DNA of 53,073 bases from Chloracidobacterium sp. (GTDB taxonomy: Bacteria; Acidobacteriota; Blastocatellia; Pyrinomonadales; Pyrinomonadaceae): positions 1 to 53,073 of the forward strand of contig JAYUDV010000328.1 in the NCBI GenBank assembly GCA_043739565.1, written 5' to 3'. The stretch's first letter is position 1. Each line of letters opens with the position of its first letter. Positions 27,780 to 41,670 of the stretch are shown one piece after another. The notes beneath the pieces are model-generated. The model ran no database searches. It was not told the origin of the DNA and saw only the letters and a list, made by a program, of their open reading frames with translations. A program made the translations under genes and the position numbers.

Positions 27780-27870
27780 GGAGACGTGGCTGAGCGGCTG
27801 AAAGCGGCGGTTTGCTAAATCGTTGTAGCGTTAAAACCTACCACAGGTTCGAATCCTGTCGTCTCCGCCA
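27780..27870 (+). tRNA. tRNA-Ser (anticodon GCU), CCA encoded
   Basis: Acceptor GGAGACG/CGTCTCC, anticodon loop TTGCTAA, long variable arm, T-arm ACAGG TTCGAAT CCTGT, 3' GCCA. Confidence 0.9.
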
Positions 27871-28484: not shown

Positions 28485-29018
28485 ATGCGAAAAATTGTTA
28501 TCACTTATGGACTTATTTCTGGAGCGATCATCACGTGCCTCCTGTTGCTTTCGATGTACCTTTGGGAAAAGGGAATCATTAACTTCGACAACGGCGAGTA
28601 CTTTGGCTACGGCTCGATGCTGGTGGCACTCTCGATGATATTCTTCGGTATCAAATCGTTCCGTGACAATCAAAACGGAAAGTCGATCGGATTTTGGAAG
28701 GGTGCTCAGGTAGGGATCCTTATCAGCCTGCTTGCATCTTTCGTTTATGCCGCCGGCTGGGAAGTATATATGCAGACAAACCCGGAAAATAGCTTCATTG
28801 AAAAATACACCGAACACTACCTTAGCAAGCTAAAGGAAAAAGGCGCTTCGCAAGAAGAGATCGATAAGACTACAAGCGAAATGGCTTCGATGCGGGAAAT
28901 GTATAAAAATCCGATTATTCGTTTTGGCATGACGCTGTTCGAGATACTGCCTGTCGGGATTATAGTGACATTGCTGAGCGCCGCGATATTGAGGAAAAAG
29001 GAAGTTTTGGCCGAATGA
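28485..29018 (+). CDS. DUF4199-like integral membrane protein
   Basis: ATG 28485 is preceded by GGAGGA. Four hydrophobic segments with an amphipathic central region. The family assignment is from memory of the architecture only. Confidence 0.55.
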   Translation: MRKIVITYGLISGAIITCLLLLSMYLWEKGIINFDNGEYFGYGSMLVALSMIFFGIKSFRDNQNGKSIGFWKGAQVGILISLLASFVYAAGWEVYMQTNPENSFIEKYTEHYLSKLKEKGASQEEIDKTTSEMASMREMYKNPIIRFGMTLFEILPVGIIVTLLSAAILRKKEVLAE

Positions 29019-29039
29019 AGGCCTGAATTTCATGCGTGT

Positions 29040-29290
29040 CGTGATTCGGGATGTCGCTACGCGACGGGAGCATTTGTTCTGACCTTCCGTGGGTTTCGTC
29101 GCATAGCGACGGCCTGAATTTAGCCGTGGTGTTTTAACCCACGGTGGAAAGGAAAAAGGTGATCTCGTCGCGTAGCGACGAATGAATCTTTGGTCGTGAA
29201 TTCAATCGTCGCTACGCGACGACCGTCATTATTTCGACATTCCGTGGGTTGAAACCCACGGCCAAAGTCATTTGATCGCTACGCGATCTA
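29040..29290. repeat. Cluster of REP-like palindromic units
   Basis: Five copies of the GTCGC(TA/AT/GT)(C/A)GCGAC-type palindrome at about 29053, 29098, 29167, 29208 and 29275. They are interleaved with CCGTGGGTT...AACCCACGG hairpins at about 29087, 29124-29144 and 29242-29261. Confidence 0.7.
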
Positions 29291-29317
29291 ATACAAATGG
29301 ATAAATAGGAGAAATCT

Positions 29318-29722
29318 ATGTTACGAATCGTTTTGGGCGTTATTGCCGGATTTATTGCCTGGTTGATAGTGTGGGTCGGAAGCGAGAAGGTTCTTTCGGC
29401 CATTTGGCCGGCGTTCGGCGTTCATCAACGCGCGTTCGAAGAGGCGGTTAAAAATGGTGGTCAGTTCACAGCGGACACGGGCGCGCTTCTCACGCATATT
29501 GTCATCGGTTCAATAGTCTCGGTGATGGCCGGAATTCTGGCCGCGCTGATCGCCGGTGAAAACGCACGCGCTCCGCTGGTAGTCGGCATTCTGCTGTTGG
29601 CCATTGGCACAGCGAAAGCCGTTATGTCATGGCAGTATGTTCCCATTTGGTATCACGTTATCTTTACGGCGATCCTACTTCCAATGGCGATCATGGGCGG
29701 TAAACTGATAACCACCACTTAG
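29318..29722 (+). CDS. Small integral membrane protein (4 predicted TM helices), unknown function
   Basis: 134-aa hydrophobic ORF with GGAG upstream. Its 3' third is duplicated at 30476-30678. Confidence 0.6.
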   Translation: MLRIVLGVIAGFIAWLIVWVGSEKVLSAIWPAFGVHQRAFEEAVKNGGQFTADTGALLTHIVIGSIVSVMAGILAALIAGENARAPLVVGILLLAIGTAKAVMSWQYVPIWYHVIFTAILLPMAIMGGKLITTT

Positions 29723-29814
29723 GAAAAATGATTTGTGTGCAATGAAATGGTCAGAACCGGGAGTGGTAGCGAATGGGCTTGCACGGTGAGGTATAATCGG
29801 ATGAGGAGAATTTT

Positions 29815-30048
29815 ATGTCAGAAGTTGTATTAACATTACCGGATAATATCGCAAAAGAAGCCGAGGGTCTCGGGTTGTTCAAAACCCGGAATATGACATC
29901 AATGCTCAGAGCCGAGATTCGCCGTCGAAAGTCCGATAAGTTTTTCGAGATGATCGACCGGCTCGCCGAGGTCAGCGGCGAACCGATGTCGAATGAAGAA
30001 ATAAATGCCGAGATCGCAGCGGCTCGCGCGACGCGTAGGCTCCCATAG
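29815..30048 (+). CDS. Type II antitoxin partnered with the PIN toxin
   Basis: 77-aa ORF with a GAGGAG Shine-Dalgarno. Its stop abuts the ATG of the PIN gene (TAGATG). Confidence 0.6.
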   Translation: MSEVVLTLPDNIAKEAEGLGLFKTRNMTSMLRAEIRRRKSDKFFEMIDRLAEVSGEPMSNEEINAEIAAARATRRLP

Positions 30049-30468
30049 ATGCGTGTAACGGCAGACACCAACACGATTGTTTCGGGATCGTTATGGCAGG
30101 GCAATCCGAGGCGAATTCTTGAGGCAGCCCGCAGCGGCACCATAGAGCTTTTCACGAGCCTGAAGCTGATTGCGGAACTGGAGGAAGTCTTGAGTCGCGG
30201 CAAGTTTGCTGCGATAATATCGAAGGCCGAAAGTTCACCTCGTGAAATTGTCAGAAATTACAGGCTGGTCGCAACGGTTATCAATGCCGAACCCGTAGAT
30301 CCTGTCGTAATCCGCGACCCGGACGACGACGAGGTGATCGCCTGTGCAGTCGCCTCGCGTTCCGAGGTTATAGTGTCCGGCGATAACGATTTGCTCGATT
30401 TGAAGCGGTACAAGAATATTCGCATCCTGACTGCAACGGAACTGCTGTCGGAATTAAATTTGCAATGA
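30049..30468 (+). CDS. PIN-domain toxin (PIN_3 / TIGR00305-like)
   Basis: MRVTADTNTIVSGSLWQGNPRRILEAA...DPDDDEVIACAVASRSEVIVSGDNDLLDL. The acidic PIN residues are in the expected order. Confidence 0.8.
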   Translation: MRVTADTNTIVSGSLWQGNPRRILEAARSGTIELFTSLKLIAELEEVLSRGKFAAIISKAESSPREIVRNYRLVATVINAEPVDPVVIRDPDDDEVIACAVASRSEVIVSGDNDLLDLKRYKNIRILTATELLSELNLQ

Positions 30469-30475
30469 TGGGACG

Positions 30476-30678
30476 GTGATGGCCGGATGTCTGGCCGCGT
30501 TGATCGCCTGTGAAAACGCGCGAGCGCCGCTAGTCGTCGGCTGTCTGCTGCTGGCCTTAGGTATACTAAAGGCGGTTATGTCCTGGCCGTATGTTCCCAT
30601 TTGGTATCACGTTATCTTTACGGCGATGCTGCTTCCAATGGCGATCATCGGCGGTAAACTGATAAACAACACTTAGGA
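30476..30678 (+). pseudogene. Orphan diverged duplicate of the 3' third of the membrane-protein gene 29318-29722
   Basis: Codon-by-codon alignable with 29522-29724 (VMAGILAALIAGENARAPLVVG... versus MMAGCLAALIACENARAPLVVG...). It keeps an open frame of 66 aa with GTG/ATG at its start. Confidence 0.7.
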
Positions 30679-30686
30679 GAAAAAAA

Positions 30687-31175
30687 ATGAGACTTGGGTC
30701 ACTATTGTTTGTATTGGTCGTTCTCTTTGTTGCCGTTGCGGTCGATGCAGATGGCCAAGAAGTGAGCAAGAACGACGAATTGCTCAGATTGGATCAGCAA
30801 TGGCAGGACGCCGTCGTTGCCGGGGATGTAAAATTTATCGAGAAGCGAACTGTCGACGACTTTCTCTTCACACATGGGGGTGGAACCAAAGGAGATACGA
30901 AGGCGGATTGGGTCCGTCGGACCAAACAAGTTCCGAAGACGTTTCTACAACGTAAGGTTAGCAACCAATCCGTGGAGATACATGGTGATATTGCTCTGAT
31001 TTTCGGACGGCTGGATGTACGCTCAATAACCCAAACCGATTCGAATCCAGGTTGCTATGCCGTTCAGTACGTGCATTTGTATGCTCGGCGGCACCGCCAG
31101 TGGAAATTTCTGTCGCACCGGACAACACAAAGCCTTGAGACGAGGCACCAGTGCGCCCAAAGTGAGAGCAAGTGA
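30687..31175 (+). CDS. Secreted DUF4440 / SnoaL-like (NTF2-fold) protein
   Basis: Signal peptide MRLGSLLFVLVVLFVAVAVDA. LDQQWQDAVVAGDVKFIEK...DDFLFTH is typical of DUF4440. Confidence 0.65.
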   Translation: MRLGSLLFVLVVLFVAVAVDADGQEVSKNDELLRLDQQWQDAVVAGDVKFIEKRTVDDFLFTHGGGTKGDTKADWVRRTKQVPKTFLQRKVSNQSVEIHGDIALIFGRLDVRSITQTDSNPGCYAVQYVHLYARRHRQWKFLSHRTTQSLETRHQCAQSESK

Positions 31176-31281
31176 TCCGAACTGTCTAACAGACTGCATT
31201 CCGCACCTTATAACTCCCTTACAAAATCCATTCTCGACAATTCGCCATTTTCGTTCGATTCATGAAACCGTTCGGTTGCAC

Positions 31282-31311
31282 TTGACATTTGCAACCGTTT
31301 GGTTGCATACT
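31282..31311 (+). promoter_or_regulatory. Putative sigma70 promoter with embedded ArsR-type operator palindrome
   Basis: TTGACA at 31282-31287, CATACT at 31306-31311 (18-nt spacer). The inverted repeat TGCAACC-GTTT-GGTTGCA at 31290-31307 fills the spacer. A related half-repeat AACCGTTCGGTTGCA lies at 31266-31280. Confidence 0.45.
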
Positions 31312-31324
31312 CTTGTTCGAAGTC

Positions 31325-31651
31325 ATGAAACGAGATATTTTTCAAGCCATAGCTGACCCGACAAGGCGGGCGATCATTGCGTTGATAGCGATTCAGGCGA
31401 TGACGCCGAATGCTATTGCCGAAAATTTTCACACTACGCGGCAAGCTGTTTCCAAGCATCTGCGAATACTGACAGAATGCGAGCTTATAAGACAGGAACA
31501 AAAGGGACGGGAGATTTACTATTCGCTTGAGATCGAAAAAATGAAAGAGATCGACAAATGGTTAGAGCAATACAGAGAGATCTGGAAAGCGCGATTTAGT
31601 CAACTAGAAGACGTACTGGCAACGATCAAAAAACAGAAAGAGGAGAAATAA
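31325..31651 (+). CDS. ArsR/SmtB-family transcriptional regulator
   Basis: [55 protein letters not shown] (winged HTH). Confidence 0.85.
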
Positions 31652-31652
31652 C

Positions 31653-32153
31653 ATGCAAATGGATTTTATTGTCAACAAAGAGACGAAGACGGTCTCCATA
31701 ACCAAGGAATTTGCGGCCGAGCTTTCACTGGTGTGGGATGCGTATACAAAGGCGGAACTTCTTGACCAGTGGTGGGCGCCAAAACCTTGGGCATCGAGAA
31801 CTAAGGTCATGGAATTCAGAGAGGGTGGCCGCAGGTTTTATGCAATGGTCAGCCCTGAGGGTGACGAGCGTTGGGCAGTTCAGAAATACAGTTCCATTAC
31901 CCCGAAAACCAATTTCAAGCTTTTCAACGCCTTTGCCGACGCAGACGAAAATCTTGAATTACCGGGTTCCGATTGGGACCTCAATTTCAGCGAGCAAGAC
32001 GGAACGACAACGGTCAGCATTTCTATTTACAACGAATCCCTGGAACGCTTGGAGAGGATGGTCGAAATGGGCTTTGTCGAAGGAACAAAGATGCAGTTGA
32101 AAAATCTGGAAGAACTGCTAACAAAATTAACGCAGGAAAGGGAGTCAAAATAA
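31653..32153 (+). CDS. SRPBCC-superfamily protein (AHSA1 / activator of Hsp90 ATPase homologue-like)
   Basis: 166 aa. The ArsR-plus-AHSA1 gene pair is a very common arrangement. Motifs [11 protein letters not shown] and GGRRFYAM. Confidence 0.75.
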
Positions 32154-32752
32154 TGAGAAAATTAATCGCAAGTGAATTCATGACAATCGATGGTGTCATA
32201 CAGTCTTAGGAATCGGAGGGCGACGGGTTTAAGTACGGCGGGTGGTTTTTCCCCTACGCGGACGAAGTGACGGGAGCCGTGGTGCAAGCGCGGCTGGCCA
32301 AGCCCATGGATCTGCTGTTAGGGCGAAAGACCTTCGCCGCATGGGAAACGTATTGGCCGACCCATTCGAACTTCTGGCCGAACGTCATGACCGCGACGAA
32401 GTACGTCGCTTCGAACACCCGGACTTTCAGCGATTGGGAGCCCAACGTATTCCTGAGCGGTGACATCGCGGAAAAGGTACGCGAGATCAAACAGCAGGAC
32501 GGCCCCGATATCTACGTCATAGGCAGCGCCGATCTTCTCCAGACGCTTTTCAAAAATGATCTTGTCGATGAGATGGAGCTAATGATAATCCCGATCACCC
32601 TCGGCACCGGAAAACGCCTGTTCGAGAGCGGCGCGCGTCCGGCGTCCTTCAAGGTGACCAAAAGCCAAGTAGCTCCAAAAGGGATCATCATCGTCACATA
32701 CAAACGAGACGGCGACGTAAAAACCGGAGCACCTCAGATCAAAGAGGACTGA
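32153..32752 (+). pseudogene. Dihydrofolate-reductase-like RibD_C family gene interrupted by one in-frame TAG
   Basis: The ATG at 32153 overlaps the upstream stop (TAATG). It translates as [21 protein letters not shown](32207-32209)[42 protein letters not shown]...[13 protein letters not shown]. One frame is continuous across the stop and matches the family on both sides. Confidence 0.7.
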
Positions 32753-32763
32753 AGATTCAGAAG

Positions 32764-32891
32764 ATTCACCACAGAGGCACAGAGGACACGGAGGCAGATA
32801 TTAATTAGAGCAGGTAAGCTGCGTCTAGTAATATAATAAAGCCGCTTAGACATCTCTGTGTTCTCTGTGTCTCTGTGACTCTGTGGTGAAT
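32764..32891. repeat. Imperfect long inverted repeat built from CACAGAG-type 8-9-nt periodic units
   Basis: Left arm ATTCACCACAGAGGCACAGAGGACACGGAGGCAGAT. The reverse complement of the right arm is ATTCACCACAGAGTCACAGAGACACAGAGAACACAGAGATG. About 50 nt lie between the arms. Confidence 0.6.
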
Positions 32892-32912
32892 AAGTTCGGG
32901 AGAAAAACATAT

Positions 32913-33407
32913 ATGAAAAATAGATTATTTCTTGTAGGTATTCTTACCGCTTGTTTGTATGTCTCCTGCATCGGCAACAAGGTGTCCTTCACTCCCCAAC
33001 AAAAAACAAATGTTCTGGCTGAGGTCCAACTAATGGCCGAAACGATCGCTAAGAATGTTTCTGCGGAGGGACCTACCGCGTGGCTTAACGGCTTTGAAAA
33101 CACACCTGATTTCTTTATGGCCTCGGACGGTCAATTAGCGTTTCCAAATTATGACTCTGCAACCGATTTTATTAATAATAATCTAACCAAGAGCATCAGT
33201 AAGATCGAATTGCAGTGGAGCAATATGCGAATTGACCCGATCTCGGATGAGTTTGCAACATTCAGTGCAATTTTTCATGAAGATATTACCGATAGTACAG
33301 GGCAAAAGTTGTCGCAGAATGGATATTTTACGGCAACTGCACACAAAACTGTTCAAGGCTGGAAATTACGAAATGCCCATTGGTCGAGTATTCCGGCACA
33401 CCAGTAA
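32913..33407 (+). CDS. SnoaL-like / DUF4440-like lipoprotein
   Basis: MKNRLFLVGILTACLYVSC lipoprotein-type signal, NTF2-like length, C-terminal WKLRNAHWS. Confidence 0.6.
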   Translation: MKNRLFLVGILTACLYVSCIGNKVSFTPQQKTNVLAEVQLMAETIAKNVSAEGPTAWLNGFENTPDFFMASDGQLAFPNYDSATDFINNNLTKSISKIELQWSNMRIDPISDEFATFSAIFHEDITDSTGQKLSQNGYFTATAHKTVQGWKLRNAHWSSIPAHQ

Positions 33408-33473
33408 TTTCATGATGTTCGCGTTTGGTTCAAACAGAGCGGTTAAAAATATAGATAACAGGAGAAAAAGCAT

Positions 33474-33869
33474 ATGGCAAAGGTAACAGGCATCGGCGGG
33501 GTATTTTTTAAGAGTGCGGGCAAGGGTTCCGAACTGGCGGCGTGGTACGAGAAGAATCTCGGCCTCGATCTTGAGAGCTGGGGTGGTTCGATATTGAAAT
33601 GGACTGACGATAAAGCCGAGGACGGCGGCCTCACGGTCTGGAGCACGGCCGACGCCGACTCCAAATGGTTTTCGCCGAGCGAGTCTTCCTTCATGATCAA
33701 TTACCGCGTCGATAACCTCGACGAACTCCTCACCCAACTAAAACAAAACGGCGTCGAGATCCTAAAGGGTCCGGATTCCGAAGAAAACGGAAAATTCGCC
33801 TGGATCATGGACCCGGACGGCAACAAGATTGAACTATGGGAGCCTGTTGACAGCAAAGGCAGCCACTAA
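33474..33869 (+). CDS. VOC (glyoxalase/bleomycin-resistance fold) family protein
   Basis: MAKVTGIGGVFFKS...GKFAWIMDPDGNKIELWEP. Confidence 0.75.
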   Translation: MAKVTGIGGVFFKSAGKGSELAAWYEKNLGLDLESWGGSILKWTDDKAEDGGLTVWSTADADSKWFSPSESSFMINYRVDNLDELLTQLKQNGVEILKGPDSEENGKFAWIMDPDGNKIELWEPVDSKGSH

Positions 33870-33914
33870 CACGTGTTTTGCGTTCTACAGGCGTTTGCGT
33901 GAAAATCAAAGTTT

Positions 33915-35456
33915 ATGATTACATGCGTTCGTTTTGCGCCGTCTCCCACAGGCTATCTGCACATCGGTTCCGCCCGAACCGCTTTGTTTAATTACCTTTA
34001 CGCACGCCACACTGGTGGCAAGTTTCTGCTTCGCATCGAGGACACTGACCTCGCCCGCTCGACCGAGGAATCGACCCGCTCGATCCTCGATGGTTTAGCA
34101 TGGCTCGAACTCGGTCACGATGAGGCGATCGTTTTCCAATCAGACAATGCCGATAAACATCGGGCGACGGCCAACAAATTGCTTGGCCAAGGCAAGGCGT
34201 ATCGCGATTTCACACCAAAGGCCGAGCCGTCTGACGCTAACGTAAAAGATGCGATCAAGGATCGCGCCCGCGCCGCTCAAGGTGTAAAAAATATGCGCGA
34301 CAACGAGTATCGCAATCTTTCCACCGAAGAAAGTGATTCGCGTGCCGCCGCCGGTGAGCCTTTTGCGATTCGTTTGAAAGTCGCCGAAACAGGCAAGACC
34401 TCGTTTGAAGATGCAGTTTACGGCTTGCAGGAACGCGATTATAAGGAAACCGAAGATCTCGTCCTGCTCCGCTCCGACGGTCATCCGCTCTATAATCTTG
34501 CAGTCGTCTGTGATGACATCGAGATGAGTATCACGCACGTCATTCGTGGACAGGATCACCTAACAAATGCACACAAGCAAGTGCTGATATACGAAGCCCT
34601 CGGCATCACGCCGCCAACATTCGCGCATTTGCCGTTGATCCTAGCGCCGAACAAAGGCAAGCTGTCGAAACGCAAACACGGCGAGGTCGTTTCAATGACG
34701 ACATATCGCGATGCCGGATTTCTGGCCGCTGCATTTCGCAATTTTCTCGCTTTGCTCGGCTGGTCGGCTGGCGAGGAGAAAGAAATTTATTCGCTCGACG
34801 AACTCGTCGAAAAATTCACCCTCGACGGCATCCACCGCTCAAACGCCGTCTTCAATTTCACCGAAAACGACCCGCGCAAATGGACCGACGACAAGGTCCA
34901 GTGGATGAACGCCGAATACATCCGCACCATGCCGCTCGCAGATCTGCTGCCGTTTGTCAGGCCGGAACTCAAAGCCGCCAGGATGTACCGTGATGAATAT
35001 GAAGACGACGAGAAAGCGTGGTTTGAAAACACGATCAACCTCATCCGCCAGCGTTTTTTCACGCTCAAGGATTTCTCATCGCAGGGCCGTGCGTATTTTA
35101 GCGAAGACTACGATTTCGACCCGGCGGCGATTGAGAAAAATCTCTCGAAATTCCCCGACCTCAAGACGTGGCTCCCCGAACTCGCCGATAGATTTGAGTC
35201 CGAATTCGGCGAAGCCGACCGTGTCAGTAGCCCGCACGTAAGTAAGGGCCATCTTGCATTCACCGAAGAAAATATAGAGTCGGTCGTCAAAGCCTTCACC
35301 GAAGAAAAAGGCACAAAACTCGGCGTCATTATGAACAGCGCCCGCACGTTGCTCACTGGCGTTGCCGTCGGGCCGTCAATGCTGGCTGTTTTTGAGACTT
35401 TGGGGAAGGAAAGGTCGATCCTGCGGCTGCGAAGCCAGATCGTATGGAATAGCTAG
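33915..35456 (+). CDS. gltX: Glutamate--tRNA ligase
   Basis: VRFAPSPTGYLHIGSARTALFNY (HIGH), KLSKRK (KMSKS), RIEDTD. Carries the 28-nt repeat insert at 35221-35248. Confidence 0.95.
   Translation: MITCVRFAPSPTGYLHIGSARTALFNYLYARHTGGKFLLRIEDTDLARSTEESTRSILDGLAWLELGHDEAIVFQSDNADKHRATANKLLGQGKAYRDFTPKAEPSDANVKDAIKDRARAAQGVKNMRDNEYRNLSTEESDSRAAAGEPFAIRLKVAETGKTSFEDAVYGLQERDYKETEDLVLLRSDGHPLYNLAVVCDDIEMSITHVIRGQDHLTNAHKQVLIYEALGITPPTFAHLPLILAPNKGKLSKRKHGEVVSMTTYRDAGFLAAAFRNFLALLGWSAGEEKEIYSLDELVEKFTLDGIHRSNAVFNFTENDPRKWTDDKVQWMNAEYIRTMPLADLLPFVRPELKAARMYRDEYEDDEKAWFENTINLIRQRFFTLKDFSSQGRAYFSEDYDFDPAAIEKNLSKFPDLKTWLPELADRFESEFGEADRVSSPHVSKGHLAFTEENIESVVKAFTEEKGTKLGVIMNSARTLLTGVAVGPSMLAVFETLGKERSILRLRSQIVWNS
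35221..35248 (+). repeat. 28-nt repeat unit embedded in frame in gltX
   Basis: GTGTCAGTAGCCCGCACGTAAGTAAGGG, encoding VSSPHVSKG. Identical at 27 of 28 nt to 37734-37761. Confidence 0.85.
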
Positions 35457-35542
35457 GTCATTCGCTCATTCCAAAGCTTTTCCCTTTGCGTTAGAATGGG
35501 TTATATGAAGATAACTAAACAATTTTCGCCCGCATCGAATAT

Positions 35543-36466
35543 ATGAAAGGAGCCACCAAACAGATGCGCAACCAAACCGTTTCACCTGCCGCCGATCCCG
35601 ATTTTGCGATCGAGAATTTCATCGTCAAGGATGAAGACCTACCCGAATTTCGGGACATGAAGTTCGAAAATATCAACGAGCTTCACCTCGATCATCCCGG
35701 GGCGAACGACGCCGAATACCGCTCCCGCCGCGACTATATAGCTGGCCTGTCAAAAAATTTCCGCATGACGGGCGAGATCACCGACGTTGAATACAACGCG
35801 CGCGAGCAGCGTGTCTGGCGATACGTGGCAGAGGAATTGGAGGAACTACAGCAGAAGTTTGCTAGTCCGTTTTATCTGCGGGCTAAGACAGACCTGGGAA
35901 TCAAAACCGATCAAATTCCGCAGCTTTCGGAGATGAACCGGCGTCTGAAAGATCTGACCGGATTTCGCCTCGCACCGATCGAGGGCTTGGTCGAGACACG
36001 CGGGTTTCTCTCATGGCTTTCTTATCGCGTGATGCTCTGCACGCAATACATCCGACACCATTCACAACCGGCGTACACGCCCGAACCGGACATCGTCCAC
36101 GAAGCGATCGGCCACATTCCGATGTTCACCAATCCGAATTTTGCTGATTTTTCGCAGTTCATCGGCCATGGCGCTCGTATCGCGAACGACAAGCAGCTTG
36201 AGGAACTCGGCCGGCTCTATTGGTTCACCGTCGAATTCGGCATGGTCGAAAACGAGGGCAACATAAAGGCGTACGGCGCGGGTCTGCTGTCCAGCTTTGG
36301 CGAACTCGAACACGCGTTCTCCGACAAGGTAGAGCGTCGCCCATTCGATCTCGAACAGGTCATCAACACGCCCTACGATTACAGCGACATGCAGCCGATC
36401 CTGTATGTCATCCCGTCGTATGCTGAATTGAAGGAAGTAACAAGGAAGTATATTGAATCGTTTTGA
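35543..36466 (+). CDS. phhA: Phenylalanine 4-hydroxylase (biopterin-dependent aromatic amino acid hydroxylase)
   Basis: [16 protein letters not shown] iron ligands, [18 protein letters not shown]. An alternative start at ATG 35564 lies downstream of AAGGAG. Confidence 0.9.
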
Positions 36467-36489
36467 TCGAAAGGCCGATAAAAAATGCA

Positions 36490-36687
36490 ATGCCGGAATT
36501 GGAAGATTTTCATTTAAGAGAACGAAAGGAAATATCGCGAGCTTATTTACGATCACTTCCACCGGAGGCAAAAATCGCTCGAACGCTTATTCTGCAAGAA
36601 CAATACTATGCGATGCTCTTAGTACGAGCAGAAAATGGTGGACGACCGATACCCGTAAAATGGCATGTTGCAAGATATGGAACTTGA
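36490..36687 (+). CDS. Small hypothetical protein (65 aa from ATG 36490; track ORF starts at 36463)
   Basis: The ORF overlaps or abuts the phhA stop. No recognisable motifs. Its stop codon lies in the outer stem of the nested palindrome. Confidence 0.3.
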   Translation: MPELEDFHLRERKEISRAYLRSLPPEAKIARTLILQEQYYAMLLVRAENGGRPIPVKWHVARYGT

Positions 36688-36738
36688 GATCGCAAATTGC
36701 GACCTCGAATATTTGAGGTTCCAATTTGGAATCTCAAG
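36683..36738. promoter_or_regulatory. 56-nt nested palindrome (outer 7-bp stem enclosing three contiguous hairpin palindromes)
   Basis: CTTGAGA | TCGCA-AAT-TGCGA | CCTCGA-ATAT-TTGAGG | TTCCA-ATT-TGGAA | TCTCAAG, with no unpaired junction nucleotides. It lies immediately upstream of the ORF6N start. Confidence 0.5.
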
Positions 36739-36749
36739 CTTTGCAAAAT

Positions 36750-37301
36750 ATGGTTGAGAAGAAAACCAAAGGCCTGGAAACCGTCATCGTAACGCAGGAT
36801 CGGGTTGAGCAAAAAATCTATTTTGTTCGCGGACTTAAAGTAATGCTGGACAGTGAATTAGCCGAACTTTACGATGTCGAAACCCGTGTTTTGAATCAAG
36901 CCGTAAAGCGAAATATCGAACGTTTCCCTGACGACTTTATGATTCAGTTGATTCGACCGGAAGTAGAAAACTTGAAATCACAATTTGTGATTTCAAGTTC
37001 AAAAACCTACGGCGGACGTCGTGTGTTACCCTACGCTTTTACCGAACAGGGCGTGGCCATGCTGTCGAGTGTTTTGAACAGCGACCGGGCGGTGCAGGTT
37101 AATATCGCGATCATGCGCGCATTTGTAAATATGAGGCGATTGGTCGCGACGAACGCAGAAGTCAGCAAAAAGCTGGACGCGATCGAACGGAAACTTGGCA
37201 CTCACGACGAGAATTTCAAAGAAGTATTTGCCGCGATCCGCGCAATGATGGCACCGGTTAGACAGCCGAAACAGATCGGGTATATTAATAAAAAGAAGTA
37301 A
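36750..37301 (+). CDS. ORF6N (KilA-N-related) DNA-binding domain protein
   Basis: [45 protein letters not shown]...[39 protein letters not shown] 36750 is preferred over TTG 36726. Confidence 0.8.
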
Positions 37302-37309
37302 TTGAAATC

Positions 37310-38455
37310 ATGACAACACAAAATCCATTAGGACTGAAAAAGATACATCACGTTGAGTTTTACGTCGGCAATGCCAAGCAGGCGGAGTTTTATTATCGCA
37401 AGGCGTTTGGGTTTTCGCGCGCCGGCTACTCGGGGCTTGAGACGGGAAATCGCGAAGTGACGAGCTATCTGATGCGGCAAACCAAGGTCAATTTTGTGTT
37501 GACGACGCCGCTCTCTCCTGAGCATCCGGCGGCGGAGCATATCAAGCGGCATGGCGACGGCGTTCGCGATATTGCGTTTCAGGTTGAGGATGCCGATCAT
37601 GCATTTAACGAGGCCGTGAAGCGCGGTGCAACGGCGGTAACGCAGCCGCATGATTGGAAAGACGAGAATGGCTCTGTCCGTCACGCGGCGATCGCGACCT
37701 ACGGCGACACGATCCATTCGTTAATCTCTTATGGTGTCAGTAGCCCGCACGTGAGTAAGGGATCACCTAACGGTCATTCAACATACGATTATCATGGGCC
37801 ATTTCTGCCGGGCTTTGTCGAACAAAAGGTCGAAGGCGACGGCGTCGGCATCATGCTCGTCGATCATATCGTCGGCAATGTCGAGCTCGGCAAGATGAAC
37901 TACTGGTGCGATTTTTACCGCGACGTGCTCGGATTTTTCCGCTACATCACGTTTGACGACAAGGACATCTCGACCGAATATTCGGCCCTGATGTCGATCG
38001 TTATGTCGGACGGCGGCCACAACATCAAATTCCCGATCAATGAGCCCGCCGAGAGCAAAAAAGGCATTTCGCAGATACAGGAATACATCGATTACTACCG
38101 TTCAGCCGGTGCCCAGCACGTTGCTCTGCTCTGCAAAGACATCCGCCAGTCGGTCGCAAAATTGCAGGCCAACGGCGTCGAATTCCTGACCGTCCCGGAT
38201 ACATATTACGACGAACTTCCATCACGAGTAGGCGACATTGACGAAGACATCGACGACCTAAGACGCCTCGGCATTCTGGTCGACCGTGACGACGAAGGCT
38301 ATCTGCTCCAGATCTTTACCAAGCCGGTCGAGGACCGCCCAACCGTATTCTTTGAGATACTCCAGCGTAAGGGATGCAAAGGTTTCGGCAAGGGCAATTT
38401 TAAAGCGTTGTTTGTCTCGATCGAGGAAGAGCAACGCCGCCGGGGAAATCTTTAG
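37310..38455 (+). CDS. hppD: 4-hydroxyphenylpyruvate dioxygenase
   Basis: [17 protein letters not shown], two VOC modules, C-terminal [35 protein letters not shown]. Carries the 28-nt repeat insert at 37734-37761. Confidence 0.95.
37734..37761 (+). repeat. 28-nt repeat unit embedded in frame in hppD
   Basis: GTGTCAGTAGCCCGCACGTGAGTAAGGG, encoding VSSPHVSKG. It sits in a segment ([16 protein letters not shown]) that looks like extra sequence relative to my recollection of bacterial HPPDs. Confidence 0.85.
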
Positions 38456-38487
38456 GAAAATAGACCGATAGCGGTTATATTCTTGTT

Positions 38488-38760
38488 GTGCTGTTTGATT
38501 GGGACAAAAAGAAGGCTGCGAGCAACCTTGCGAAACACAAAGTTTCGTTTGAAGAAGCCGCGACGGTTTTCAGCGACACGCTTTCAGATACGTTTGATGA
38601 CCCTGACCATTCCGCCGAAGAACGTCGGTTTCTTATCATCGGACATTCTGACAAAAGCAGGCTGTTGTTTGTTTCGCACACGGACGACGGAGAGATCGTT
38701 CGTATTATAAGTGCGAGAGAACCTACACGCCGAGAACAAAAATCTTATGAACAAGGATAA
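38488..38760 (+). CDS. brnT: BrnT-family (DUF497) toxin
   Basis: GTG start. (M)LFDWDKKKAASNLAKHKVSFEEAATVFSD...RFLIIGHSDKSRLLFVSHTDDGEIVRIISAREPTRREQKSYE. Confidence 0.8.
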   Translation: MLFDWDKKKAASNLAKHKVSFEEAATVFSDTLSDTFDDPDHSAEERRFLIIGHSDKSRLLFVSHTDDGEIVRIISAREPTRREQKSYEQG

Positions 38761-38977
38761 AAAAATTATTGGCGAGGATGAAATGCGACCTGAATATGAC
38801 CTTTCGCAACTGAAGGGCAAAGTTCGGGGTAAATACGTCGAACGTTATCAGGCGGGAACGAACCTGATTTTATTGGAGTCCGACGTGCAAGCGGCGTTTC
38901 CTGATTCCGGGGCTGTAAACGAAGCGTTGCGAATGTTGATGAAAGTCGCCCGCCGGCAGGTTCACGAACAGGCCTGA
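38747..38977 (+). CDS. Antitoxin partnered with BrnT (BrnA-like)
   Basis: ATG 38747 overlaps the brnT 3' end by 14 nt. Contains the EYDLSQLKGKVRGKY motif that I recall being common in antitoxins adjacent to DUF497 toxins. Confidence 0.6.
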   Translation: MNKDKKIIGEDEMRPEYDLSQLKGKVRGKYVERYQAGTNLILLESDVQAAFPDSGAVNEALRMLMKVARRQVHEQA

Positions 38978-39160
<183 letters not shown>

Positions 39161-39170
39161 GAAATTAGCT

Positions 39171-39220
39171 ACGAATGTCACGAATAACACGAATTCGACT
39201 TCTTTATTCGTGACATTCGT
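39171..39220. repeat. Perfect 17-bp hairpin made of 9-nt periodic ACGAAT units
   Basis: ACGAATGTCACGAATAA (39171-39187) pairs with TTATTCGTGACATTCGT (39204-39220). The ATTCGTG periodicity continues to about 39230. No U-tract follows. Confidence 0.6.
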
Positions 39221-39244
39221 GTAATTCGTGGCAAAATCCTCTTA

Positions 39245-40609
39245 ATGAAACTCAAATACTTAACAGGTTTCGGCAATGATTTTGCCACAGAGGCGGTTGA
39301 GGGTGCGTTGCCCGTGGGACAGAATTCACCGCAGAAGGCTCCGCTTGGGCTTTATGCGGAGCAGTTTTCAGGAACGGCGTTTACGACTCCGCGTGCCCAC
39401 AATCGGCGGACTTGGACGTATCGGATACGGCCGAGCGTTTTGCATAAGCCGTTTCGGTTGATCGGCCGTAGCGATGCCCTGCCTAACGGTCGGGCTACTG
39501 ACACGCGGACAAGGCTGTTCAGATCGTCGCCGTTTGATGAGGTTGTCACGACGCCGAACCAGCTTCGTTGGGATCCACTGCCTATACCGACGGAGCCGAC
39601 CGATTTTATTGACGGCATTACAACCATTGCCGGGAACGGCGATTCATTATCACAGACTGGCATGGCGGTGCATATCTATGCGTGCAACAAAGGTATGGGC
39701 GAACGGTATTTTTACAACGCCGATGGCGAGATGCTGATCGTGCCGGAAATGGGCGGGCTGACAATCTATACCGAGCTTGGCATTGTCGCGGTTACGCCCG
39801 GCCAAGTGGCGGTATTGCCGCGAGGACTAAAGTTTAGAGTAGAAATCGGAAGTTCTGACAATCCGCAATCCGCAATCCGCGATCCGCAATCGTTAGCCCG
39901 CGGCTATATCTGCGAAAACTACGGCCAGCAGTTTCGCCTGCCTGAGCTTGGATCGATCGGTGCGAACGGCCTGGCAAATTCGCGTGATTTTGAAACGCCT
40001 GTTGCTTGGTACGAAGATGTTGAGGGCGAGTTCGAATTGGTGGCAAAATTTGGCGGCAATCTCTGGTCGTGTGAGATGGATCATTCGCCGCTCGATGTTG
40101 TCGCCTGGCACGGTAACTATGCTCCTTACAGATACGACCTTACGCGATTTAACACGATCGGCTCGATCTCGTTCGATCATCCCGATCCGTCGATCTTTAC
40201 GGTCCTGACTTCGCCTAGCGGTGAACCGGGCGTCGCGAATTGCGATTTTGTCATCTTCCCAGACCGCTGGCTCGTCGCCGAAAACACATTCCGCCCGCCG
40301 TGGTATCACCGCAATTTCATGTCCGAATACATGGGCCTCATATATGGTGCTTACGACGCCAAAGAGGAAGGCTTCGTCCCCGGCGGCGGTTCGCTCCACA
40401 ACCAAATGTCCGCCCACGGCCCCGACCTCGACGCCTTTGAAAAAGCGTCGAACGCCGACCTTGCGCCGCAAAAGCTCGAAGGCACGATGGCTTTCATGTT
40501 CGAATCGCGCTACATCATCCGCCCGACGAAATTTGCAATGGAGACATCGCAACTCCAGCACGAGTATTCAGATGTCTGGCAAAAGTTGAAGAAGAATTTT
40601 GGAACCTAG
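39245..40609 (+). CDS. hmgA: Homogentisate 1,2-dioxygenase
   Basis: [30 protein letters not shown]..., [17 protein letters not shown], full-length 454 aa. Confidence 0.95.
39860..39892 (+). repeat. Heptanucleotide tandem repeat (AATCCGC x about 4.7) inside hmgA
   Basis: AATCCGC AATCCGC AATCCGC GATCCGC AATCG. 33 nt, in frame, encoding [11 protein letters not shown]. Confidence 0.8.
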
Positions 40610-40657
40610 ATTTTACAAAACCTCTTGACCGACTGTAGCCAATGGGCTACACTTGTT

Positions 40658-40948
40658 ATGATCGAAGTTCGGCAAACCGAAGTCTTCGCCAAATGGTTTT
40701 TACGACTTCGGGATTTACGCGTACGCGCTCGAATACAAGCCCGGATTGATCGGCTTGAATTAGGGAATGCGGGTGACGCAAAACCTGTCGGCGAAGGCGT
40801 CTCAGAAATGAGAATTGACTACGGGCCGGGCTACCGTGTCTATTTCATCCAACGGGGATCGAAATTGATCGTCCTTCTTGCCGGTGGTGACAAAAGCTCT
40901 CAGTCAAACGATATTCGAAAAGCCTTGAGTCTCGCTGCGGATCTATAA
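40658..40948 (+). CDS. RelE/ParE-superfamily toxin (addiction module killer protein, HigB-like)
   Basis: MIEVRQTEVFAKWFLRLRDLRVRARIQARIDRLELGNAGDAKPVGEGVSEMRIDYGPGYRVYFIQRGSKLIVLLAGGDKSSQSNDI. Confidence 0.8.
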   Translation: MIEVRQTEVFAKWFLRLRDLRVRARIQARIDRLELGNAGDAKPVGEGVSEMRIDYGPGYRVYFIQRGSKLIVLLAGGDKSSQSNDIRKALSLAADL

Positions 40949-40953
40949 CGCTT

Positions 40954-41253
40954 ATGGGAAAGACAAAAACAACTAAATACGATGTGGCTGAATATTTGAA
41001 TACGCCCGAGGAAATGGCGGCGTATCTCGAAGCCTGTCTTGAGGAAGCAAACGGTGACGCTGCTTTTGTTGCCAAAGCCCTCGGTAATATCGCCCGTGCC
41101 AAAGGCATGTCGCAAGTAGCTCGCGACAGCGGCCTTTCCCGCGAGAGCCTCTATAAGGCTCTTTCTGGCGAGCGAAGTCCCGGCTTCGACACAATTCTCA
41201 AGGTTGTTGCCGCACTCGGACTGAAACTTCATGCCGAAGCGAGTCAAGTTTAG
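40954..41253 (+). CDS. HigA-family antitoxin (addiction module antidote protein)
   Basis: YDVAEYLNTPEEMAAYLEACLEEANGDAAFVAKALGNIARAKGMSQVARDSGLSRESLYKALSGERSPGFDTILKVVAALGLKL. Confidence 0.8.
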   Translation: MGKTKTTKYDVAEYLNTPEEMAAYLEACLEEANGDAAFVAKALGNIARAKGMSQVARDSGLSRESLYKALSGERSPGFDTILKVVAALGLKLHAEASQV

Positions 41254-41282
41254 TTTGAAAATAAAGAGTTGCGAGAGCCTTT

Positions 41283-41395
41283 ATGTTCGAGTCGCGATAC
41301 ATCATCCGCCCGACAAAATTTGCAATGGAAACCCCGCAGCTCCAACACGAATATTCTGAGGTCTGGCAGAGGTTGAAAAAAATTTTAAGGGCTAA
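41283..41395 (+). pseudogene. Orphan diverged copy of the last ~37 codons of hmgA
   Basis: [33 protein letters not shown]..., versus the hmgA C-terminus [33 protein letters not shown]... An apparent 1-nt indel lies near the end. The ancestral-looking TAA at 41393-41395 lies just before the next gene. Confidence 0.8.
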
Positions 41396-41397
41396 TC

Positions 41398-41670
41398 ATG
41401 TGCAGAAACATTAAAACACTTTTCAATTTCGATCCCCCGGCGACCTCGGACGAGGTGCGGGCGTCATCAATCCAGTTTGTTAAGAAGTTGTCCGGTTTTA
41501 ATCGACCTTCGAAAGCGAACGAAGCGGCATTTGACCTCGCCGTCGAGCGTGTCTCGGCCGCCGCACAGGAAATGCTCAATTCGCTTGTGACAAATACCCC
41601 GCCGCGCGACCGCGAAACGGAAGCGATCCGGGCAAAGGCAAGAGCGGCACAGAGATTCGGAGTAAATTAA
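41398..41670 (+). CDS. DUF2277 family protein
   Basis: MCRNIKTLFNFDPPATSDEVRASSIQFVKKLSGFNRPSKANEAAF, the characteristic N-terminus of this family as I recall it. Confidence 0.7.
   Translation: MCRNIKTLFNFDPPATSDEVRASSIQFVKKLSGFNRPSKANEAAFDLAVERVSAAAQEMLNSLVTNTPPRDRETEAIRAKARAAQRFGVN

Follow-up and report, generated by a model that had tools for sequence, protein, structure and literature searches.

Restriction-modification complexes are known to undergo insertion with long target duplication, in which a cassette without mobility genes lies between target repeats of 30-420 bp and relatives hold the single-copy empty site; such insertions occur in many lineages, and their mechanism was left unresolved (Furuta, Abe and Kobayashi 2010, PMC2853133). 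Toxin-antitoxin (TA) modules are known as 'islets' between core genes without mobile-element signatures, which were proposed to move by recombination in the flanking genes, and TA integration into chromosomes has been called 'unclear' (Belot et al. 2026, PMC13617665). In this study I show that each of three TA cassettes in a stretch of 53,073 nucleotides from Chloracidobacterium sp. (contig JAYUDV010000328.1, positions 1 to 53,073; this whole stretch is called the window) lies between an intact gene and a diverged orphan copy of that gene's own 3' end, and I argue that the cassettes were probably captured without a recombinase and then spread by homologous recombination. Work by Nobusato et al. 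in 2000 is reportedly also concerned with insertion with long target duplication. The preliminary description of this DNA, made from the sequence alone, had named no described mechanism by which TA cassettes systematically leave such a footprint; an analogous one is known for restriction-modification systems (PMC2853133), and no description specific to TA modules was found in the literature searched.

A repeat search of the region and of the whole window gave exactly three long direct-repeat families, and no other repeat longer than 60 nt was found in the whole 53 kb. The pairs lie at 29520-29728 and 30474-30682 (209 nt, 86% identity), at 38283-38463 and 38988-39168 (181 nt, 80% identity), and at 40485-40599 and 41272-41386 (115 nt, 83% identity), and pairwise alignment confirmed all three. 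The first copy of each pair is the 3' end of an intact open reading frame (ORF), encoding a membrane protein, hppD and hmgA, respectively, while the second holds, in frame, only the last 66, 57 and approximately 36 codons of these genes. Every one of the three TA cassettes is bracketed by one of the three repeats (3/3), and the inserts of 745, 524-532 and approximately 662 nt contain only the two TA genes each. Repeat search, alignments and the Pfam assignments of the cargo bear out the earlier claim that the same layout occurs three times within about 12 kb, with significantly similar repeat pairs; only the orphan coordinates given at that time were a few nucleotides off. Measured against the features listed by Furuta et al. 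(2010), the repeats exceed 30 bp, and the cassettes are smaller than 20 kb, carry a complete predicted addiction system and have no mobility gene. Inverted terminal repeats bracketing a cassette, as expected of a transposon, an insertion sequence or a miniature inverted-repeat transposable element, were not found in the repeat search of the region, and the called genes of window positions 27.3-48.5 kb and 10 further large ORFs did not include a recombinase, in agreement with the preliminary description. Likewise, the three repeats have no k-mer of at least 8 nt in common, and this lack of a common core argues against one site-specific recombinase.

All three cassettes are type II TA modules as predicted from the sequence, with toxin families that pass the Pfam cut-off; host genes, cassettes and orphans all lie on the forward strand. 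In case 1, the host is an intact gene for a membrane protein of 134 amino acids (29318-29722) with 2314 homologues at 83-96% identity, followed by cassette 1 (29729-30473) with a putative antitoxin of 77 amino acids (29815-30048) and a PIN_3 toxin (30049-30468; Pfam, 6e-17), the stop codon of which lies 5-8 nt ahead of the orphan. This orphan (30474-30682), the last 66 codons of the membrane gene and the stop, directly precedes the Shine-Dalgarno sequence and ATG of a DUF4440 gene (30687-31175). In case 2, intact hppD (37310-38455) is followed by cassette 2 (38456-38987), in which a BrnT toxin (38488-38760; Pfam BrnT_toxin, 1.4e-26) overlaps a BrnA-like antitoxin of 88 amino acids (38711-38977). 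Its left junction is the hppD stop codon and its right junction lies approximately 10-15 nt past the BrnA stop, where the orphan begins (38988-39168; 57 codons and the stop). In case 3, intact hmgA (39245-40609, with HgmA_N and HgmA_C domains) is followed by cassette 3 (40610-41271), which encodes a HigB-like toxin ending at 40948 (Pfam Gp49/HigB, 8.9e-6) and an antitoxin of the HigA type at 40954-41253 (dnstrm_HI1420, 1.5e-31, and HTH_3), and has a promoter-like site, TTGACC-17-TACACT, with the palindrome TGTAGCCAATGGGCTACA as a putative operator at 40625-40653. The third orphan (41272-41397) has a deletion of 1 nt near its end and abuts the start of a DUF2277 gene (41398-41670); the DUF4440 and DUF2277 genes are the downstream neighbours as first stated. 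The partners of the PIN and BrnT toxins have no match in Pfam or NCBIfam; they are conserved alongside the toxin in relatives, and this, as well as their size and their overlap with or abutment to the toxin gene, is consistent with an antitoxin.

The two copies of each gene end differ in a way that is typical of functional genes in the case of hppD and hmgA. By the Nei-Gojobori method, omega (dN/dS) is 0.34 for the membrane-gene pair, 0.023 for hppD and 0.037 for hmgA, and not near 1 in any of them. The differences at first, second and third codon positions number 7, 7 and 14 for the membrane gene (dS 0.32), 3, 4 and 29 for hppD (dS 2.8, saturated) and 1, 2 and 13 for hmgA (dS 1.35), that is, 29 of the 36 differences in hppD and 13 of the 16 in hmgA are at third positions, and they are overwhelmingly synonymous in these two pairs as had been asserted. 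In permutations with as many randomly placed changes, so few amino-acid differences were never or hardly ever obtained (P <= 0.0002 in all three pairs). The hppD orphan has five residues (N, T, L, A, L) at which 118-120 of 120 functional HppD proteins differ, and its decay amounts to approximately 0.04 changes per site, yet 29 of its 57 third positions differ; judged from these changes it is a young pseudogene fragment, with a synonymous divergence that predates the insertion. In orphan 1, the variant residues are natural alleles of homologues except for one G-to-C change (G in 114 of 126 homologues), and both membrane-gene copies carry variants that occur naturally in functional homologues. 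The low omega of hppD and hmgA, the low decay of the hppD orphan and the natural membrane-gene alleles uphold the earlier proposal that the copies diverged inside functional genes of different lineages, one of them having arrived with the cassette.

In order to compare the locus with its relatives, species-representative genomes were scanned with HppD, giving 80 loci, all from Acidobacteriota and most labelled Pyrinomonadaceae or Pyrinomonadales (L-numbers denote loci from relatives or metagenomes compared with the window). The order gltX-phhA-hppD-hmgA-DUF2277 is conserved in relatives, with spacers of 2 nt to approximately 7 kb. Empty hppD-hmgA sites of approximately 80 nt are present in nine genomes (L002, L005, L014, L025, L028, L036, L052, L069 and L071), and in L006 the hmgA stop is followed by TC and the ATG of the DUF2277 gene, an empty site of 2 nt. 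The native hppD-hmgA spacer that directly follows orphan 2 in the window (39169-39244) aligns with the empty site of L002, and the flank of orphan 3 matches the layout of L006, so that these orphans are ends left joined to their original downstream neighbours. Single-copy empty sites in species-level relatives, and the continuity of the orphan into its native neighbour that the preliminary description had supposed, are thereby found for cases 2 and 3; for case 1 no empty site was found in relatives, where the membrane gene has other neighbours. Searches for an empty allele of the same species found none: the best match to a reconstructed 'native' membrane protein reached 92%, the closest HppD homologues reached 93%, and all contigs found to encode an identical DUF2277 or DUF4440 protein are occupied. 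The similarity of approximately 10 nt past the stop codon that had been noticed in cases 1 and 2 is present, as conserved native post-stop sequence in case 1, while in case 2 it coincides with microhomology between the native sequence and the 5' untranslated region (UTR) of the cassette.

The best BLAST matches of the short 3' segments among 80 species-level relatives were too noisy to tell native from foreign copies, because third positions are near saturation, and a test on third positions gave no discrimination for cases 1 and 3. For intact hppD, third-position identity with the closest relatives drops from 0.65-0.8 to 0.40-0.45 from approximately position 38090, which lies about 190 nt ahead of the repeat; from this point on, the 3' third of the gene looks imported. 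The closest relatives resemble the orphan more than they resemble the intact 3' end: the orphan has a third-position identity of 0.53-0.61 to L084, L002 and L083 and 0.49 to L082, and it is 85-86% identical to both copies in the nearest relative L084, against 78% for the intact 3' end. Two further mosaics were observed. L092, from a different sample and with another gene upstream, is approximately 10% diverged from the window over 29308-29412 and 100% identical from 29413 on, over 351 nt through the end of the membrane gene into the cassette, so that the imported tract starts 107 nt upstream of the repeat. In L082 and L084, both from one sample, the hppD genes match each other at 100% over nt 300-660, and in the 3' 480 nt their identity is only 72-90%, with a breakpoint at approximately nt 660-720, and the divergent 3' ends adjoin BrnTA and MazEF, respectively. 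These mosaics indicate that a cassette moves together with part of its host gene, the crossovers being located at some distance upstream of the repeat. Breakpoints inside the membrane gene (29413) and hppD (approximately 38090) are what a donor tract entering via a homologous anchor would leave. The longest identical runs within the repeats are 39 nt in the membrane gene, 11 nt in hppD and 17 nt in hmgA, and the run of 11 nt argues against a crossover inside the present hppD repeat.

The same scar is widespread among relatives. Self-comparison of 85 related loci (1.23 Mb, repeat pairs of at least 55 nt) gave 46 direct against 9 inverted pairs at a spacing of 300-3600 nt, and 27 against 3 at 550-1100 nt. 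Scars are found at 3' ends (gene-cassette-orphan) and at 5' ends (orphan-cassette-gene) of hppD, hmgA, phhA (3' end only) and other genes, analogous ones occur in approximately 27 loci of metagenome-assembled genomes (MAGs) from many studies, and in some related loci the repeats are 91-96% identical. MazEF follows hppD in L084 and hmgA in L082, a PIN module follows hppD in L039, a DUF433/DUF5615 pair follows phhA in L057, and HigBA pairs homologous to cassette 3 follow hmgA in L013 and L056. In L020 (13037-16446), three cassettes lie in a row after hmgA, with an hmgA 3' fragment after each; their cargo consists of a MazF-type gene, a TPR protein of 520 amino acids and a DUF6036 nucleotidyltransferase, and the locus is a stratified record of serial insertions. 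Across relatives, the cargo is mostly of the TA or defence type (BrnTA, HigBA, MazEF, PIN, nucleotidyltransferase-type proteins and ORF6N), but one RibD_C gene, one TPR gene and several genes of no assigned family also occur, most of these unassigned genes being without a match in NCBIfam and PADLOC. Pyrinomonadaceae MAGs thus hold dozens of the same scar, with a cargo that is not exclusively TA. The layout of gene end, BrnTA and orphan at a GT2 glycosyltransferase gene in L144, an unrelated high-GC contig, shows that the architecture is not confined to the Pyrinomonadaceae.

The junctions of the scars are conserved in two cassette families, although the orphans next to them are lineage-specific. 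BrnTA joins its orphan at the same hppD codon (approximately 323) in the window and in L015, while in L082 the junction lies further in or has been deleted; the hppD orphans of L015 and L082 carry indels, that of L015 also an in-frame stop, and the orphan of the window is clean. The hppD 5' orphans linked to ORF6N in L039, L013, L055 and L078 all end at ...AAGCAGGCGGAG, at the same base, and these orphans form no clade, that of L055 keeping the N-terminal extension of its own lineage. A single ancient, vertically inherited scar is ruled out as an explanation by the fresh orphan, and independent illegitimate events are ruled out by the constant junction. Both observations are explained by a unit that keeps its junction while resident sequence replaces the distal orphan at each transfer.

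A scan of metagenomes with BrnT (80 loci) points to the origin of cassette 2. Only 2 of the 80 loci are linked to hppD, and the closest relatives of the toxin, 78-88% identical, are not located beside hppD, but in arrays of small cassettes separated by attC-like elements. These arrays are found in soil-metagenome contigs (L113-L119, L121 and L125-L127; for instance L118, 620-2731), with the BrnTA cassettes of 78-88% identity in L113-L119. The separators measure approximately 100-125 nt and consist of an R'' box GCCGAAC, a bulged L''/L' stem of 15 pairs (L'' TGGACGTGAGGGCG, L' CGCCCCACGTCA) and an R' box GTTCGGC, while other loci have the canonical ends GTTAGGC and GCCTAAC. Cassette 2 is collinear with the attC-flanked cassettes of L114-L118 from the hppD stop codon to approximately 15 nt past the BrnA stop, which shows it to be of integron-cassette ancestry. 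At the left junction, the window reads TAGGAAAATAGACC and the integron cassettes TAGGAAAATAAAC, and at the right junction the orphan starts approximately 5 nt ahead of the position taken by the first base of the R'' box in the integron cassettes. At the stop codon, the microhomology is an imperfect match of approximately 12 nt to native post-stop sequence, and at the right junction it is at most 3 nt, as measured against these cassettes in place of a true donor; the junction is shared with L015 and hence not unique. Cassette 2 lacks attC and approximately the first 30 nt of the 5' UTR. Only 5-26 nt lie between the last stop codon and the orphan. Neither the window nor the Pyrinomonadaceae loci contain the attC-family motif, and neither an IntI integrase nor attI was found nearby among the genes and ORFs examined. 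One match to the motif, in L054, was rejected as a chance match inside an ORF of 512 amino acids. IntI can insert cassettes outside att sites, at genomic attG (bioRxiv 10.1101/2022.09.11.507474). Insertion by IntI would preserve both attC and these first nucleotides, so that their absence indicates a microhomology-type capture rather than IntI insertion at attG.

The architecture, the divergence pattern, the continuity of the orphans, the empty sites, the mosaic genes, the conserved junctions of two families and the ancestry of BrnTA, as shown above, are best explained by recombinase-free capture with long target duplication and subsequent spread by homologous recombination, an explanation that I consider somewhat better than even. 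Each TA pair would be a minimal, promoter-bearing addiction cassette without recombinase, which host-mediated recombination presumably placed at the end of a chromosomal gene, a process for which microhomology at either end of the cassette would suffice. The capture would duplicate the end of the target gene; a template switch, homology-facilitated illegitimate recombination or a double crossover with two arms are candidate steps, and the route by which the DNA entered is likewise conjectural. The unit of gene end, cassette and displaced gene end could then spread among related lineages, with one crossover in the body of the host gene and the other in or beyond the orphan, whereby the intact gene would gain a foreign 3' end and the resident 3' end be displaced downstream, where it would stay on the expression signals of the next gene and decay. 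Because native spacers measure only 2-80 nt, an insertion is presumably viable only if it restores the upstream gene and leaves the signals of the downstream gene intact. The divergence of the repeats, together with post-segregational killing, may protect the cassette from deletion. A wider claim is that TA and small defence cassettes, some of them former integron cassettes, become 'homology-armed' elements without recombinase, captured by microhomology or template switch, equipped with two arms (the imported gene end and the orphan, each able to pair with one and the same conserved gene end) and inserted into relatives by RecA only, with the orphan refreshed each time, as a general route across phyla that leaves a recognisable scar; this is possible, but I regard it as doubtful.

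Alternatively, a small circle carrying the cassette and one copy of the gene end, derived from recombination between the repeats of a donor, could integrate by a single RecA crossover and so regenerate the repeat pair. Such Campbell-type integration predicts conserved junctions with lineage-specific orphans, as seen, it allows stacked cassettes each with an orphan, as in L020, and integron-type cassettes naturally exist as circles. However, the imported tracts start upstream of the repeat, by 107 nt in L092, approximately 190 nt in hppD of the window and approximately 430-490 nt in L082 versus L084, the identical runs of 11 nt (hppD) and 17 nt (hmgA) are too short for efficient RecA exchange, and the window holds no circle junction or attC, for which reasons I judge a circle to be rather improbable. 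A site-specific recombinase encoded elsewhere could also insert cassettes at specific sites in gene ends; an integron integrase that uses attG-like sites is one candidate, a different tyrosine recombinase another. The circulation of the BrnTA family as integron cassettes, the ability of IntI to act outside att sites and the constant junctions within two families are compatible with this, and phage 21 and e14 leave a similar duplicate of the icd 3' end; yet the absence of attC and of the 5' end from cassette 2, of a common core from the repeats and of a recombinase gene from the ORFs examined, as well as the many different target genes and junction positions, render this quite unlikely. Of the three mechanisms first proposed for this locus, recombination that is anchored in homology or illegitimate therefore fits best, the Campbell circle less well and a recombinase in trans poorly.

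Tandem duplication of the gene end in situ, followed by TA insertion and by divergence through mutation, would be the simplest way to a direct repeat, and the repeats of 91-96% identity in some related loci would suit it. But neutral decay of such a duplicate leads one to expect an omega of approximately 0.5, and the values of 0.02-0.04, at a dS of 1.35 for hmgA and 2.8 for hppD and an orphan decay as low as that of hppD, refute it for cases 2 and 3; with both membrane-gene copies carrying alleles of other lineages, it is very improbable for the window as a whole. Finally, the layout could be an artefact of metagenome assembly, with strain variants stitched in tandem: the window belongs to a MEGAHIT metagenome contig of 73 kb, and several sibling assemblies break inside the PIN gene. 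This is hardly credible, as the occupied arrangements of cases 1 and 3 are found again in at least six independent assemblies from different pipelines, the analogous scars in MAGs come from many studies, and repeats of 80-86% identity cannot be joined by shared k-mers.

Several observations weigh against capture followed by homologous spread. The junctions between HigBA and hmgA differ across three genomes (codon approximately 387, 416 and 426, each at most approximately 26 nt from the HigA stop), which needs independent events or later erosion. Over long times, the hppD 3' ends do not co-cluster with the BrnTA phylogeny, and travel of the 3' end together with the cassette is seen in the short term only, in mosaics of the L092 and the L082/L084 type. 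The tight junctions, 5-26 nt past the last stop, could point to defined element ends. In cases 1 and 3, flank continuity is the only guide to which copy is presumably native and which foreign. With neither an empty allele of the same species nor an identifiable donor, no event has been reconstructed base by base, and natural competence or another route of DNA entry is not documented here for the Pyrinomonadaceae.

The surroundings of the cassettes show some further features. Between phhA and hppD, a single-gene ORF6N cassette with a palindromic operator is located on the forward strand (36684-37301; Pfam ORF6N, 4e-34), the gene of which matches the PADLOC defence candidate PDC-S05 (8.6e-62); an orphan hppD 5' fragment was not found upstream of this cassette in the window. 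A 28-nt element, GTGTCAGTAGCCCGCACGTGAGTAAGGG, occurs in frame in gltX (35221-35248) and hppD (37734-37761), encoding the peptide VSSPHVSKG, with a weaker inverted copy at 39477-39504; it is also present in hppD of approximately ten relatives and in gltX of L056, with none expected by chance, and looks like a short coding-sequence insertion or a recombination motif. The hppD-hmgA spacer contains repeated CACGAAT / TTCGTG motifs, conserved with L002, which may be a candidate operator of the homogentisate pathway. Upstream of case 1, a tRNA-Ser(GCT) gene (27780-27870) lies just before GerE-DUF4199, and a cluster of four copies of the palindrome GTCGCTACGCGAC, similar to repetitive extragenic palindromes (REP-like), lies at 29053-29220 between the DUF4199 gene and the membrane gene; it is found nowhere else in the window (0.09 expected), and several sibling assemblies break there. 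The interval from DUF4199 to gltX (29018-33915) measures 4.9 kb in the window and holds nine small accessory genes, against approximately 0.1-1.8 kb, usually 0.5-0.9 kb, in six relatives, and is a variable islet without recombinase. Within it, between the RibD_C gene and the next ORF, an inverted repeat of 21 nt (32764-32784 and 32871-32891; 95% complementary) has arms 86 nt apart.

The scar, that is, an intact gene with a foreign, synonymously diverged end, the cassette and the displaced native end, constitutes a searchable footprint of TA entry, which links the pools of integron cassettes to illegitimate or microhomology capture and to spread by homologous recombination. It predicts imported tracts in host genes and conserved junctions with lineage-specific orphans, and the orphans of stacked cassettes give the relative order of arrival. 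It also calls for caution, since in these genomes the ends of conserved metabolic genes, hppD and hmgA among them, are recombinant mosaics.

Compared with integron gene cassettes, the window shares the collinear BrnTA unit that is separated by attC in the arrays, but it lacks attC, IntI and the G|TT boundary, and duplication of a gene end is not an IntI product. Phage 21 and e14, which target icd, and elements that target tRNA or tmRNA genes integrate by an integrase into the 3' end of a gene and bring a replacement end. The footprint of phage 21 and e14 is alike in that the gene stays intact, with a 3' end that is foreign and diverged at synonymous sites, and is followed by the displaced native fragment; these elements, however, measure kilobases and encode an integrase and an att core, whereas the cassettes of the window measure 0.5-0.75 kb and have neither a recombinase nor a common att core in their repeats. 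Homology-facilitated illegitimate recombination is reportedly the subject of work by de Vries and Wackernagel in 2002, Prudhomme et al. in 2002 and Meier and Wackernagel in 2003. As far as it is outlined in PMC2884548, it combines a one-sided homologous anchor with a microhomology join and requires no recombinase, which would explain the imported tracts that start inside the host gene; the classical events, on that same outline, have a new junction each and usually a deletion of recipient DNA, whereas here the junctions are conserved in two families and the target end is kept as a duplicate. TA islets and the minimal mobile elements (MMEs) of Neisseria resemble the cassettes as small units of TA genes only, without mobile-element signatures, that are proposed to be exchanged by recombination in flanking core genes, but their models predict replacement without a scar and describe no duplication of gene ends, as present in the window. 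The insertions of restriction-modification complexes come closest, with a cargo of the addiction type, no mobility genes, long direct target repeats and empty sites. In the Acidobacteriota studied here, the cargo consists instead of type II TA modules and small genes of the defence type, it is invariably gene ends that are repeated, and the copies are 14-20% diverged, almost only at synonymous positions, while the pairs quoted in the tables of PMC2853133 are mostly more than 90% identical. The present finding extends long target duplication from restriction-modification systems to TA and candidate defence genes and differs from the former in showing evidence of a later spread through homologous recombination and of an integron-cassette origin.

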